A DNA stretch of 64,000 nt from a virus: IMG/VR virus record IMGVR_UViG_3300012930_000002, positions 7,818-71,817 of that record. One strand, 5' to 3'. The notes beneath the pieces were generated by a model. That model saw only the letters and a program-made list of their open reading frames with translations, was not told where the DNA came from and did no database searches. This document shows positions 10,361 through 50,768 of this stretch, piece by piece. Positions within the stretch are counted from its first letter, which is position 1. Each line of letters opens with the position of its first letter. Both the position numbers and the translations under genes were made by a program.

Positions 10361-11483
10361 TTAATTATCCTCGCCTCGCAAATCTTCCTCATGACTGTCT
10401 ATCGCACAACGTATCGTGCTCACCCATTGACAAGCTAAAGTATCACTTATCTGGATGTACCGAGAACCTTCAGGATTGTCTATGTCACTACCTAGACGTG
10501 GCGCATCCTCAATAGTCTTAGCAAGGTCCAACAAGTCGCTCATACTTGTTCACCTTCCTGGTCAGCGACCGCCACTATTGCGCGGCCACCAGTAGATGCG
10601 CCTTGTCGTATCTCCCGCTCAAACTGCCTCAGCGCTTCTGCCAGCCACGCGACTGGATCGGCGCGCTGGTTGGCGTTTAGTTCGTCGTAGATGACCCGTG
10701 CGCGTTCTTCGATGCTGATCATAGATAGATTCCTCGTTCAGCAAGCAGCTTGACTAGATGCTGCCATTCATCCTTATCGTAATTCGGCTGACTCGCAGCT
10801 TTAGTCCAAAGGCGATGAAAGAGAGCGTTGATTTCCTCGCTGCTCATTTCTTTCTCCGTCGCTTTGCTGCCGTCGCTCGGTTATTACGTTTCACTCTAAA
10901 TACAACGCTGATCCGCCCACTTAATTCCTTCTTGGCGCGAAACTGCATTTTATGTACTAGATCACAGTCACAGCAAGCTAGCCGATAGTTGCGATCACCG
11001 TGGCCGTGTAGCGGCGAAATCCAGCGGCTCCATCCGTTCGCCTCGGCATATTCTTGTCGATAGCGCTTAGGCATGCATCCCTTTCCGTAATCGCCGCCAA
11101 TGCTCCCTTACCATCCTCGCCATCATCTCTTCCTTGCTGAGATGCTTAAACCTACCCGCCGCTGTCGCCGTGCTCATTCGCGCTGTTAATGCATCTGAAT
11201 GCCTGCGACACAGTAGTTCGGCCACACCTGCCGCGACGTGCATGTACAGCTTGCCGCCGAGTTGATCAGCAGTCTTGAGACATTCAGCGCATCGGGCCAT
11301 TTGCGTCGGTTGTACGGCAAGTAGGTCAAGCAAGGTCGCATAGGCTTTCTGCTCATCCGCGTAGCACGTCTCGCAAATGTGGCCGCGCAGGTCATCCCCG
11401 CCGACAATATCGTCAACGGAAGGGGTGACTGCTTTGCCGCATACCCGACAAGGAAGGCCAAAGATGACAGCCGGTGCAATCAC
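10361..11483 (-). other. Cluster of small accessory ORFs (10361..10543, 10540..10722, 10844..11074, 11067..11483), two with Cys clusters
   Basis: Coupled by ATGA-type overlaps; CCDC and several CxxC motifs. Confidence 0.5.
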
Positions 11484-11845
11484 AAACTCTCCATCAGCGC
11501 CGCTACGATGCGCGTGAAAAGTACGTCACGTTGCTGCTCCTCGCGAGGTAAGAGCGACCACGGGAGGAGACGACGATGGCACTTCTGTTTCACGTCCGTA
11601 AACTCGGCCAGCCGCCAACCGTCATGCAGAAGCGTCACCATCCAGCGGTCGTGTGCGGACGAAGCAGGCGCGCCGCGATTCTCCACGCAGAACAGCACGC
11701 GGGCTTCGATCTCAGCCTTCGCGGGCGCTGCCAGCTTATCAAACGGCTGCTGTGAGAAGTCACCGAAGACTTGCTGGTTGTAGGCACGGCTGGCCTCATA
11801 CGCGATCTTGGCAATGTCAGTAATGTTCACTCCGCTCCTTTCCAA
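11480..11845 (-). CDS. RyR-domain-like phage protein
   Basis: SAHDRWM...DGWRL...KQKCHRRLLPWSLLPREEQQRD matches the RyR repeat pattern seen in phage proteins. Confidence 0.6.
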   Translation of the reverse strand: MERSGVNITDIAKIAYEASRAYNQQVFGDFSQQPFDKLAAPAKAEIEARVLFCVENRGAPASSAHDRWMVTLLHDGWRLAEFTDVKQKCHRRLLPWSLLPREEQQRDVLFTRIVAALMESL

Positions 11846-12141
11846 CCAAATGCCGCATCCGCCTTAGCGTGTGCGCTATCTTCCTTATCCTCGAAGCTGG
11901 CGAGTTCGCCGGTTAATTCTTCAATCATCTGCTCGCGCAAAATACGCATCTCGTACAACGTGCGAATGCTGCCCTGCCGCTGACCAACCTCTTGTATACC
12001 CATATCGCGGATCGACGCAGTATGCGCCTGCTCAAGCATTTGGGCCACACGGGCCATGATCAGCGCCCACCCCGGATGCGTCTCAAGGTCACGGAGGGCG
12101 TCGCGGTCGCTGGATTTAGGACTGGCTAGTGGATTTGGCAT
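11827..12141 (-). CDS. Small portal-associated helical protein
   Basis: LETHPGWALI...RQGSIRTL pattern, downstream of the portal. Confidence 0.5.
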   Translation of the reverse strand: MPNPLASPKSSDRDALRDLETHPGWALIMARVAQMLEQAHTASIRDMGIQEVGQRQGSIRTLYEMRILREQMIEELTGELASFEDKEDSAHAKADAAFGWKGAE

Positions 12142-43793: not shown

Positions 43794-43970
43794 ATGAGTG
43801 ACAAGATCGACAAGATCAAGGTCGGCGACTGGGTCCGTTTCTACCAAGATGGTAGGCTGGTCATCGGCATCGTGCAATACGTCCACAAGTAGGAGTTCGA
43901 TGACGATTTAGAGCTTTGCACGGACATAGGCGAAACTTCGACCGATGCAGTTCAGGAGGTGCGGCGATGA
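43794..43970 (+). pseudogene. Small ORF with in-frame TAG at 43890
   Basis: MSDKIDKIKVGDWVRFYQDGRLVIGIVQYVHK*EFDDDLELCTDIG...EVRR, ending in an ATGA overlap with the next gene. Confidence 0.5.
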
Positions 43971-48421: not shown

Positions 48422-48613
48422 GTGACTGTCTAGCGGAATTACATCTTGGAGATGATTATGGGGATAATCAATGCACGATACATTGTCAACTACCGCCTGA
48501 ACATGAACCCCCGCACTGTGAGCGATTCCAACGCGGAGGATTGCCGGTAGTTATCACATGGCATATTGATGACAGGGAAGACAAAGAGGACGGTTATTAA
48601 AGGAGCGCGCCCG

Positions 48614-48892
48614 ATGACGAAACGCAGCACGAAGCGACCACGCCTTATTCGCTGTGAAATCAGATACAACGCTAAGCAAGGTGCGTGGTATTATCGTGAG
48701 AAGATAGACGGCGTGTGGGAGCCAAGCTATGAGGGCTTCCCTAAACTCGCGTTCATCAGGGACACCGTTCAGCGACTTCGACAGCGCATTGCTTTAGTGC
48801 CAGCGTGCTTCTCCCTGCGAATCTACAAGCGAAATGGACAGTACCAGGATGAGCGAAGTTATGGGCATGACCCGAGAAAGTCAAAGGGATAA
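48614..48892 (+). CDS. DUF2188-like protein
   Basis: LRIYKRNGQYQDERSYGHDPRKSKG C-terminal motif. Confidence 0.65.
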   Translation: MTKRSTKRPRLIRCEIRYNAKQGAWYYREKIDGVWEPSYEGFPKLAFIRDTVQRLRQRIALVPACFSLRIYKRNGQYQDERSYGHDPRKSKG

Positions 48893-48894
48893 AA

Positions 48895-49146
48895 ATGAAG
48901 CACGATCAAGATGCTCGGTTTTATTATGAAATCATTCCGTTAACCTTTGGCCGCGCTCGGATCATCTATACCGACGGAACTGTCATAGCAGATGGTTGGT
49001 GATATGACGGTCCAATTGCTGCGGTCGCGGCACTCGAAGCATTTCAGCAAAACGAAGATGAGGAACCGGAAGGATGGATGCGACATCCGCAATCTGGCCG
49101 GCGGCGTCCGAATGGCGACAGAAATAAAGAATATATTTATCCCTAG
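48895..49146 (+). CDS. 83-aa protein with in-frame UGA; candidate selenoprotein
   Basis: MKHDQ...IADGW-[TGA 49000]-YDGPIAAVAALEAF...EPEGWMRHPQSGRRRPNGD...YP; SECIS-like hairpin at 49017-49032. Confidence 0.55.
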
Positions 49147-49235
49147 TATTTAGCGCAGGCGTTGATGATCCGCTTCCTCTACTTCATCCTCGGCTTGCTG
49201 ATCGGCATAGCGACAGTTGAGACAGGAGAGAATAA

Positions 49236-49769
49236 ATGCGTTACTGGTTCGACACTGAATTCATCGAGGACGGTAGAACGATTGACCTGATTAGCATCGG
49301 GATCGTCGCTGAAGACGGGCGCGAGTTCTACGGACAGAACGCTATCTGTGACTTTGGAAACGCAAGTGGATGGGTAGAAGATAACGTGTTAGTTCACTTA
49401 CAAGAGTTTGACCTCAACTGCTACCAGCCTGCGAATCCTTCAACACTTGCTGCGCCTTGGTATTCTAAGAGCGAGCTAGCCGTAGCCATTCAGCAATTTA
49501 TCAGTGGCGACAAACCCGAATTCTGGGCCTATTATGCCGATTACGATTGGGTTGTACTTTGCCAGCTGTTCGGCACGATGATGGACTTACCCAAAGGCTG
49601 GCCAATGTACTGTCGAGACATTAAACAATGGTGCGACATGCTCGGCAACCCAAAACTACCTGTGCAGAGCGACACGGAGCATCACGCGTTAGCGGACGCC
49701 CGTTGGAATAAGACGGCTTGGGAATTCTTAGATCGCTATCACTGGATCGTGATTGCAACGGCGAGATAG
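49236..49769 (+). CDS. 3'-5' exoribonuclease (Rv2179c/RNase AS-like DEDDh)
   Basis: RYWFDTEFIEDG, LISIGIV, YYADYDWV, HHALADARW. Confidence 0.85.
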   Translation: MRYWFDTEFIEDGRTIDLISIGIVAEDGREFYGQNAICDFGNASGWVEDNVLVHLQEFDLNCYQPANPSTLAAPWYSKSELAVAIQQFISGDKPEFWAYYADYDWVVLCQLFGTMMDLPKGWPMYCRDIKQWCDMLGNPKLPVQSDTEHHALADARWNKTAWEFLDRYHWIVIATAR

Positions 49770-49779
49770 AAGAACGGCA

Positions 49780-50253
49780 ATGAGAATCAGCTATAGCGAC
49801 GATGAACAGTATCCCGGTCAATTCAATCTCTGGCAGGCGAACTGTGACCGTTCGCTGGTAGGGAGGAAGGGCCAGGCGGCGTTGCGAGAGTTGGAGGCGG
49901 CGCTAGTCGCTCTGCCTAACAAACGGTTGATCGCAGATGAGTTTGAGAACGAGGAAGGCATCTGTCCGCTGGCCGCAGTAGCAAAATATCGTGGTCTGAC
50001 CAGGAGTGATATTAAGGCTGACCCTGAATCCGAGATGGAAGAAGTCGGTGTTGAGCTTGGCATGCCCCGGCTGGTTGCGTGGAAGATTGTCGAGTTGAAT
50101 GACATCATCATTGATGGGCATTACGCTGACACAGTAGGGCCAGTTCGATACGGCGGCTGGCGACCTCGTGTGTTCATCCCCGCCATGCCAGAAGAACGGT
50201 ACGAAAAGGTACTGTCTTGGGTTAGGTCGCGAATTGTTACGGAGGTAGGATGA
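49780..50253 (+). CDS. Phage hypothetical protein
   Basis: GRKGQAALRELEAALVALPNKRLI motif. Confidence 0.5.
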   Translation: MRISYSDDEQYPGQFNLWQANCDRSLVGRKGQAALRELEAALVALPNKRLIADEFENEEGICPLAAVAKYRGLTRSDIKADPESEMEEVGVELGMPRLVAWKIVELNDIIIDGHYADTVGPVRYGGWRPRVFIPAMPEERYEKVLSWVRSRIVTEVG

Positions 50254-50768
50254 GCACGACAACGGAACTCACGGGCATAATCAACGCGCATTCTGTGATC
50301 TTCAAAGCACCTGACGGCACCGATTTGCCCGTCCACCTCTACCGTGGCGGTGATGTATCAGTGCCGGGGATTGCGACGTTGAAAGCACTGAACGTGAGCA
50401 AGGTCATTAGCTTGCAGAACGCCAAACAAGACTCAGCCGCCACAATCCTATTCGAGCACGCACGCGTAGAGGAAGCGGGGATGACGTGGGTGAATGTACC
50501 AATGGACTCGTCAGGCGTGTTCAGCTACGATGATATTAGCAAGGTGCCGCAGGTGCTGAGCGAAATTCAGAACACAATAGGGCCGGTCCTAATTCACTGC
50601 TCGAAAGGCGCTGACAGATCCTCCGTGGTCGCCTCAATCTATCGTATCCAGCATGGCTGGAGCGTTGATAAGGCAATCAAAGAGGGTCAGTCATATGGTT
50701 GGGCCTGGTGGAACAGCGGGATGCGTAAGGCGGTCAGGCAGTGGGCAAAGGATCAAGGATATAAGTAA
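50250..50768 (+). CDS. Dual-specificity/tyrosine phosphatase (CX5R)
   Basis: LYRGG, PVLIHCSKGADRS, YRIQHGWS..KAIKE. Confidence 0.9.
   Translation: MSTTTELTGIINAHSVIFKAPDGTDLPVHLYRGGDVSVPGIATLKALNVSKVISLQNAKQDSAATILFEHARVEEAGMTWVNVPMDSSGVFSYDDISKVPQVLSEIQNTIGPVLIHCSKGADRSSVVASIYRIQHGWSVDKAIKEGQSYGWAWWNSGMRKAVRQWAKDQGYK

Follow-up and report, generated by a model that had tools for sequence, protein, structure and literature searches.

An in-frame UGA at a conserved cysteine position, followed by a SECIS-like hairpin, marks a candidate selenoprotein family of bacteriophages

Translation of stop codons is known in bacteriophages from the Q-beta A1 protein and from TAG- or TGA-recoded phages. 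In these cases a standard residue is inserted at a leaky stop and its identity is of minor importance, or the stop is reassigned across late genes by means of suppressor tRNAs. Here we describe an open reading frame (ORF) at positions 48895–49146 on the plus strand of a 64,000-nt stretch of viral DNA, hereafter the window, which corresponds to bases 7818–71817 of the IMG/VR record IMGVR_UViG_3300012930_000002. The ORF contains an in-frame TGA and, on comparative sequence grounds, very probably encodes a genuine phage selenoprotein decoded through the SelB of the host. With Q-beta A1 and the recoded phages it would share a stop codon that is translated in phage mRNA. However, only one UGA per gene is involved, it stands at the position of a conserved Cys, and a second UGA ends 69 of the 98 distinct TGA-form genes among the matches listed.

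In bacterial selenoprotein genes, of which E. coli fdhF is the prototype, UGA stands at a Cys position, and an intragenic stem-loop, the bacterial selenocysteine insertion sequence (bSECIS), lies just 3′ of it. The phage gene shows the same arrangement. According to the consensus given in an excerpt of PMC13188914, a bSECIS has a loop of 3–9 nt, an upper stem of 4–16 bp, a G within the first two loop positions, a UGA-to-loop distance of 16–37 nt and a minimum free energy (MFE) of −7.5 kcal/mol or lower. The phage UGA-to-loop distance of 20 nt and the hairpin energy lie within these limits, and here, too, the element constrains the peptide. The phage case differs in that the genomes searched lack selA, selB, selD and tRNA-Sec and in that the protein family is phage-specific.

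Virus-encoded selenoproteins are represented by the fowlpox GPx4-like and molluscum contagiosum GPx1-like proteins, the only two poxvirus glutathione peroxidases named in the relevant part of a recoding review (PMC8310308). As described there, they resemble the phage gene in being encoded by a virus and dependent on the selenocysteine (Sec) machinery of the host, and the fowlpox SECIS lies in the coding region. In contrast, they are captured cellular genes of eukaryotic viruses and carry eukaryotic-type SECIS elements. The phage gene has a bacterial-type hairpin adjoining the UGA, and its family was not seen as a cellular gene in 401 genomes of one phylum.

A full-text literature search returned no description of a phage selenoprotein, and the matches concerned eukaryotic viruses. 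According to an excerpt of PMC9402790, viral sequences were absent or nearly so from the trace-element and selenoprotein families examined, save three metalloproteins. The main texts of the 2026 prokaryotic selenoproteome review and of the BSepDB paper do not mention phage, virus or viral. No phage family was found among published selenoproteins in main texts, while supplementary lists (BSepDB Table S2 with 111 families; deep-Sep) might name one. The mechanism considered here is already known from bacteria; the novelty lies in its large-scale deployment by a protein family specific to phages.

The ORF begins with ATG 48895, directly after the stop codon of the upstream ORF (48890–48892). It runs for 35 codons to ...ADGW, reaches the TGA at 49000–49002 and continues for 47 in-frame codons to a TAG. 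Within this second part lies a hairpin, TGCTGC-GGTC-GCGGCA, its loop beginning 20 nt 3′ of the UGA. A sequence-only reading of the window had proposed this ORF, which was missing from the gene list, as a phage selenoprotein with a SECIS element. The sequence, the positions of UGA and hairpin (49017–49032) and the read-through product obtained here were identical to those it gave, and its interpretation is supported by the Cys at the site in homologs, the recurrence of the UGA and a hairpin specific to UGA forms.

An exhaustive phmmer search of 1.84 billion cluster representatives revealed 562 proteins at E ≤ 0.001, which form a large, unannotated and mostly viral family. By tblastn, nine GenBank phage records matched, all of them Caulobacter jumbo phages (Bertelyvirus), over residues 32/33–83 with 43–50% identity. 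The annotated proteins of these phages read ...DRW-C-Y... where the window reads ...DGW-TGA-Y.... When 154 family sequences were aligned with MAFFT, the position of the TGA was occupied by Cys in 116 (one being the placeholder of the query), Asp in 11, Glu in 6, a gap in 4 and other residues in fewer; excluding the query, Cys occupied the site in 115 of 153 sequences. The flanking residues were W in 132 and Y in 139. The W-C-Y that the sequence-only reading had given at this position for proteins with the GWxRHPxxGRRR motif is seen both in the Caulobacter homologs and in this alignment, and the homologs carry Cys, not Trp, at the site. One protein, P0074, has W-D-Y inside an otherwise TGA-clade-like sequence.

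A related-locus search with a five-sequence alignment retrieved Caulobacter jumbo phages only, and no near-identical DNA of the locus was found in the phage collection. Pfam, NCBIfam and PADLOC contained no family for the window protein and up to six homologs. In the PHROGs, matches were confined to the Caulobacter homologs: P0002 (E = 2.8e-7) and P0003 (E = 1e-8) matched PHROG 24748, which is of unknown function and has no Sec annotation. The window protein, P0001, had no PHROG match at E ≤ 0.1 and is homologous to these Caulobacter proteins by the other searches. When a natural Cys-form homolog was used as the query in the ESM Atlas, the nearest clusters were unnamed and 71–86% viral.

The first hint of further UGA forms was P0005, a 49-residue metagenomic protein, known as a protein only, with about 70% identity and the same terminal ...GW; among partial sequences it is the nearest relative of the window protein. 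Nucleotide collections were scanned for the codons W-TGA-Y followed 54–84 nt later by G-W-x-R-H-P; because W before the site, Y after it and GWxRHP downstream were required, the counts cover one subset of the family. The IMG/VR scan returned 38 stretches, 31 of them genuine diverged homologs with a frame open through the conserved C-terminus and 7 due to chance. Among 185,579 species genomes, 86 stretches were found (3 genuine), and JGI metagenomes yielded at least 117, at least 75 of which passed the homology filter, one of them spurious by eye. Pooled with the window, TGA at exactly this codon was present at at least 110 loci and in at least 98 distinct sequences, both being lower bounds because the pool includes the metagenome matches listed. 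Among these 98 sequences, nucleotide identity over the 66 nt after the UGA had a median of 56% and a minimum of 32%.

The same pattern was applied to IMG/VR with other codons at the site. Cys codons gave 62 stretches, 58 of them genuine, and TAA or TAG gave none. TGG gave 3 stretches and a stop at the next (Tyr) codon gave 5, with no genuine homolog in either case. TGA makes up about one third of the pattern-defined viral homologs, and only Cys codons and TGA occupy the site, which excludes a chance nonsense mutation. The absence of TAA, which a single transition separates from TGA, and of TAG speaks against a split gene, in which all three stops would serve equally well; the absence of TGG argues against Trp read-through, where TGG would be neutral.

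The closest full-length database match, P0006 (105 aa, 64% identity), has W-W-Y at the site and is otherwise TGA-clade-like; judging from its sequence, it is most likely a TGA form translated with table 4 by some pipeline. Protein databases most likely conceal TGA forms in this way, behind a Trp, or in fragmentary entries, of which P0005 and P0070 are examples. Close Cys relatives (P0007–P0010 and P0012) are also found in the protein database, as is usual for selenoprotein families.

TGA retains its function as a terminator in these genomes. The 69 TGA-form genes that end in a second TGA do so 2–4 codons past a conserved E-Y, at the same place as the Cys forms. In the window, TGA is the commonest terminator, ending 21 of the 54 non-overlapping long ORFs. 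The window contains no tRNA genes. In the records of relatives, the surroundings of the best sub-threshold tRNA-Sec matches (five loci) carry ordinary tRNAs (Tyr, Ser and others), none of them with a UCA anticodon. Since TGA still terminates and no UCA anticodon was present at these loci, the recoding is local to one codon. Consistently, a test for genome-wide TGA reassignment gave a negative result.

The frame downstream of the TGA bears the signature of a coding sequence. For concatenated blocks of 34 TGA forms, the NG86 ratio of nonsynonymous to synonymous substitution rates (dN/dS) was 0.20, versus 1.73 for the +1 frame of the same nucleotides. Taken by block, codons +1 to +13 had a ratio of 0.41 and the C-terminal block one of 0.16; the value of 0.76 for the 20 upstream codons is unreliable because that block is ungapped across indels. 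No in-frame start codon occurs in the window gene between the TGA and Met62. These ratios indicate that purifying selection acts on the frame after the UGA and that the sequence beyond it codes for protein.

A tree of 90 distinct TGA and Cys forms was built with the site masked as X. Thirty-three of the 34 TGA forms fell on one side of a single branch with a Shimodaira–Hasegawa-like approximate likelihood ratio test (SH-aLRT) support of 81. The remaining one, L039, fell in the sister group beside five Cys forms. The tree requires 2 state changes, compared with a mean of 27 when the labels are shuffled. Because the alignment, at 95 columns, is short and resolution is lacking at many forks, one and two origins of the UGA form are indistinguishable. 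The end branches are 0.25–1.05 changes per site long, and the UGA has therefore been kept through long divergence. Within the sister group, a Cys form on a viral contig (L089:1299-1364) encodes A-A-V and carries GGTC at the loop columns with the stem broken; its appearance suggests either a hairpin in decay following a change from Sec to Cys or a precursor of the hairpin.

The hairpin was analyzed in an RNA alignment of 31 TGA forms, ungapped over 66 nt from the UGA. A helix of columns 16–23 and 28–35, closing a loop at 24–27, was 81% paired versus 68% in column shuffles (0 of 500 reached the observed value). The covariation score was 0.41, compared with 0.22 for shuffled columns (0 of 500), and sliding the 3′ partners by 1–3 columns brought it down to 0.18 or less. 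The strongest covariation came from two pairs that join third codon positions on both sides. Pair 21–30 was CG in 9 forms, GC in 9, AU in 3, UA in 3, UG in 2, GU in 1 and unpaired in 4; pair 18–33 was GC in 13, CG in 7, AU in 2, UA in 2, GU in 1, UG in 1 and unpaired in 5. Among the 98 distinct TGA forms from the matches listed, pair 21–30 was formed in 79 (40% expected from column composition) and pair 18–33 in 69 (39% expected). In the same set the loop was GGUC in 60, AGUU in 14 and CGUG in 13, with G-U at loop positions 2–3 nearly always.

This hairpin is a property of the UGA forms. In 54 distinct Cys forms, pair 21–30 was formed in 23 and pair 18–33 in 17, and GGUC was absent from the ten most frequent tetramers in the loop columns. 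The median local MFE was −12.7 kcal/mol in TGA forms and −7.15 kcal/mol in Cys forms (Mann–Whitney, p = 1.2e-10). The bSECIS constraints, implemented here for uninterrupted stems only, accommodate the window hairpin (6 bp, GGUC, 20 nt, −7.8 kcal/mol). They also accommodate 30 of the 34 TGA forms, 28 of these at exactly 20 nt, compared with 6 of the 54 Cys forms, at scattered spacings. At the peptide level, the TGA clade encodes A-A-V-A-A (GCN GCN GUC GCN GCN), whereas the Cys forms mostly encode x-A-K-A-A. The covariation at wobble positions, together with the synonymous-shuffle control, demonstrates that the RNA itself is under selection.

The structure of the protein was modelled with AlphaFold2 (AF2) as a continuous chain from 129 family sequences (predicted local distance difference test 93.4, predicted template modelling score 0.82). 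The model has strands at residues 10–15, 21–26 and 31–37, a helix at 40–53 and a short C-terminal element, and residue 36 ends strand 3. The coding part before the TGA accounts for two β-strands and most of the third. Foldseek returned no match to the model at E ≤ 0.001 in the PDB or in BFVD, and the best E-value in a profile search of PDB sequences was 0.69. A 70-aa metagenomic protein, P0004, keeps the PLTFGR and EPEGWMRHPQSGRRRP motifs and lacks the entire middle segment, and with it both the helix and the Sec/Cys site; either a deletion or an error in gene calling may account for it.

Sec decoding of the phage gene would need host machinery, since the phage records lack their own. SelA was absent from the virus record of the window, and 32 virus records, 11 of them at least 90% complete, contained no SelB, SelD or tRNA-Sec over the cut-off, which extends the remark of the sequence-only reading that no sel genes are present in the window. 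The helicase of the window phage has relatives in phages of many phyla. Three metagenome bins contain a TGA form, two of them Planctomycetota and one Peribacteria, linked by binning only. Both Planctomycetota bins carry SelA, SelB, tRNA-Sec (scoring 69 and 71 bits) and a SelD that itself contains a TGA in frame, and for this reason the organisms they represent are taken to be users of Sec. Each of these two bins, according to its gene content, encodes at least one selenoprotein of its own.

Their SelD genes, L223 (G003:C1) and L224 (G001:C571), each have one in-frame TGA (..GG-U-A..) followed by a hairpin. The hairpins present G-U in a small loop, at nt 21–23 in one and about nt 30–34 in the other; two cases are too few to weigh. 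The TGA form binned in the Planctomycetota metagenome-assembled genome G003 lies at 73683–73925 of contig G003:C42 (L346-L350; 81,370 bp). This contig also encodes a tape-measure protein and a DNA methylase. Its exact 141-nt terminal overlap and the tape-measure gene identify it as a complete, circular phage genome and rule out a prophage. In 401 genomes of the phylum to which G003 belongs, the family had a match in G003 alone, on this co-binned phage contig.

Taken together, these data are best explained by Sec decoding. The UGA corresponds to the Cys of homologs, it has been conserved as UGA over a long time, and it is followed in UGA forms specifically by a covarying hairpin that fits the bSECIS model. 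Decoding by SelB with Sec-tRNA-Sec, incorporation of selenium and a catalytic or redox role of residue 36 would be in line with these features. The hairpin at 49017–49032 would act as a bacterial-type SECIS, presenting a G-U tetraloop 20 nt after the UGA and recruiting SelB with Sec-tRNA-Sec to the ribosome. The UGA at 49000–49002 would then be read as selenocysteine instead of a stop, with translation proceeding to the ordinary TAG. The product would be an 83-residue selenoprotein, made in a host that has SelA, SelB, SelD and tRNA-Sec. It is predicted to be a compact single domain of three strands and one helix with an Arg-rich C-terminal motif, in which Sec36 ends strand 3 before the helix. 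In evolutionary terms, one deep clade would have switched from Cys to Sec, its local peptide being reshaped to A-A-V-A-A, the codons of which build the hairpin. We infer, tentatively, that the family protein uses the single Sec/Cys at the junction of strand 3 and the helix as a nucleophile or redox residue on a host or phage target in the course of infection.

Several observations weigh against this interpretation. Considered alone, the window hairpin is unremarkable: over the 61 nt after the UGA its z-score was +0.71, and 152 of 200 shuffles folded as well or better. Its energy in isolation, −7.8 kcal/mol, is barely within the −7.5 kcal/mol limit of the published model. The simple bSECIS criteria exclude 4 of the 34 TGA forms and admit 35% of TGA forms with synonymously redrawn codons. 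The hairpin is written into the peptide, so part of the pairing comes from the Ala and Val codons, and shuffles already reach 68%. RNAalifold alone predicted only 3 of the 8 pairs. Rfam gave nothing at the gathering score in the window and no SECIS match at E ≤ 10 in 48900–49150; bacterial SECIS elements are said, in an excerpt of bioRxiv 10.64898/2026.04.03.716425, to be poorly represented in Rfam. Residue 36 is not always a redox center, because Asp or Glu occupies the site in 17 of the 154 family sequences, and a ligand or acid–base role may also be considered for it. The Peribacteria bin (L161) had SelA, SelB, SelD and tRNA-Sec all below the cut-off. Finally, the host links come from metagenomic binning only, and the G003 contig, being a circular phage genome, is no prophage.

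The comparison with E. coli fdhF is likewise mixed. The fdhF SECIS, as described in an excerpt of PMC8659212, is a 17-nt upper stem-loop at nt 15–31, 11 nt after the UGA, with a bulged U17 and G23/U24 in the apical loop. The window hairpin spans nt 18–33 and those of its relatives nt 16–35, which sets them apart from the fdhF type. Compared with that description, the phage hairpin lacks the bulged U, both in the window and in the consensus, starts 12–14 nt and not 11 nt after the UGA, and has the loop GU at nt 25–26 and not 23–24. The designation of the hairpin as fdhF-like is therefore justified by its GGUC/GU loop and by its placement immediately 3′ of the UGA; the bulged U and the precise spacing are not shared. 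By analogy, the phage hairpin would work like the E. coli element without being a copy of it.

Among the alternatives, programmed read-through independent of SelB survives best, although we regard it as improbable. In this scenario a leaky UGA, perhaps aided by the hairpin, would accept a standard residue (Cys, Trp or another) by near-cognate decoding and give a set ratio of the 35-residue peptide to the full-length protein. It is favored by the marginal window hairpin without an Rfam SECIS match, by the TGA-form bin lacking Sec machinery over the cut-off, and by the fact that the roles of SelB and selenium are deduced from sequence. However, TGG, a single transition from TGA, would be a neutral replacement under Trp insertion, yet none of the 3 TGG stretches was genuine. 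The alignment of the site with a conserved Cys, the complete absence of TAA and TAG, and a hairpin with bSECIS-type loop and spacing (exactly 20 nt in 28 of the 30 passing forms) also argue against it. According to the AF2 model, termination after 35 residues would cut a single compact domain within strand 3.

The UGA could also be a true stop that separates two genes or truncates one, so that the N-terminal peptide alone is made, or the downstream part arises by re-initiation. Gene callers do split the locus in this way, P0005 ends at ...GW and P0070 starts past the site. Nevertheless, this explanation is very unlikely. Between the TGA and Met62 of the window gene the frame lacks a start codon, the codons that follow the TGA (Tyr, Asp and others) are conserved and are not starts, and dN/dS is low in both downstream blocks. 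A split gene would tolerate TAA or TAG, neither of which was encountered, and the predicted one-domain fold places the site within a strand.

A nonsense mutation (TGY to TGA), pseudogene or sequencing error in this one phage, the fallback of the sequence-only reading, would take a single base change from TGC or TGT, but it is effectively refuted by a TGA common to at least 98 distinct sequences from independent assemblies in one deep clade, by purifying selection downstream and by the adjacent-codon stop control without genuine homologs; its likening to the TAG at 43890 does not apply to the UGA site, and its probability is negligible. Equally negligible is genome-wide reassignment of TGA to sense in phages or hosts (by a code of the table 4 or 25 type or by a suppressor tRNA of the phage), which could account for the W-W-Y of P0006, as if TGA were translated as Trp, and for the TGA form in a candidate-phyla-radiation bin, but is effectively refuted for the window by the terminating TGA codons, the lack of a UCA anticodon at the five loci and the lack of tRNA-Sec over the cut-off in 32 records.

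The source contig of the window is a complete 71.8-kb IMG/VR virus with direct terminal repeats, and the G+C content of the window is 52.8%. The candidate selenoprotein gene is located between ORFs 48566–48892 and 49236–49769, and its features are collected in Table 1.

Table 1. Features of the candidate selenoprotein gene in the window.
Feature	Position	Strand	Basis and remarks
Shine-Dalgarno-like AAGGGA	48884..48889	+	Read from sequence; 5 nt before ATG; overlaps end of ORF 48566-48892; putative function
N-terminal coding part M1-W35 with conserved PLTFGRARI motif	48895..48999	+	Homology to P0005, P0004 and TGA-form clade; AF2 strands
In-frame TGA, proposed Sec36 codon (W-C/U-Y)	49000..49002	+	Aligned with Cys of homologs
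C-terminal coding part Y37-P83, with helix 40-53 and EPEGWMRHPQSGRRRPNGD..EY motif; ends with TAG 49144-49146	49003..49146	+	Family conservation, dN/dS
SECIS-like hairpin, 6-bp stem 49017-49022 / 49027-49032, loop GGUC 49023-49026	49017..49032	+	

Small accessory genes surround the ORF in the window. The downstream neighbor (49236–49769, plus strand) is an Rv2179c-like 3′-5′ exoribonuclease (PF16473, E = 3.6e-15). On the same strand, 50250–50768 encodes a protein that resembles dual-specificity/tyrosine phosphatases (PF22741 and related families) and has a CX5R-type motif. No conserved neighbors were found: those of the window recur in at most one other locus, the exoribonuclease being near the family gene in just one further locus (L033), and the top non-self neighbor cluster was present in 11 of 93 loci. 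At 43794–43970 (plus strand) lies a small ORF that encodes MSDKIDKIKVGDWVRFYQDGRLVIGIVQYVHK before an in-frame TAG at 43890–43892, which is followed by another 25 codons up to a stop. A scan of both strands of the window for an in-frame TGA with the frame open on either side and a bSECIS-type hairpin returned the 49000 site and one other, at 11753 (plus strand; hairpin of 9 bp, loop AGGC, spacing 26 nt). The latter was rejected as a chance occurrence because it is antisense to the minus-strand ORFs 11480–11845 and 11827–12141.

A broader proposal combines several claims: that this is the first bacteriophage selenoprotein family and is confined to phages, that phages evolved both the change from Cys to Sec and a SECIS tuned to SelB, and that the UGA serves as a conditional gate. 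As a whole we consider this combination possible but rather doubtful. If the gene is indeed decoded as proposed, phages would exploit the recoding machinery of the host for genes of their own. The hairpins would provide a compact natural SECIS of about 20 nt with a GGUC tetraloop and a rich record of tolerated variants, and one kind of small ORF, annotated in viruses as "split" or truncated, would be explained. The role of a single Sec/Cys in a small protein would become testable, as would the idea that Sec competence of the host limits phage expression. Under the gate of the broader proposal, which follows from the absence of Sec machinery in the phages, the full-length protein would be made only in Sec-competent hosts supplied with selenium, and elsewhere translation would stop after 35 residues. 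The capacity for Sec decoding would then shape the host range or the infection program, and phages would constitute an unrecognized source of selenoproteome innovation.

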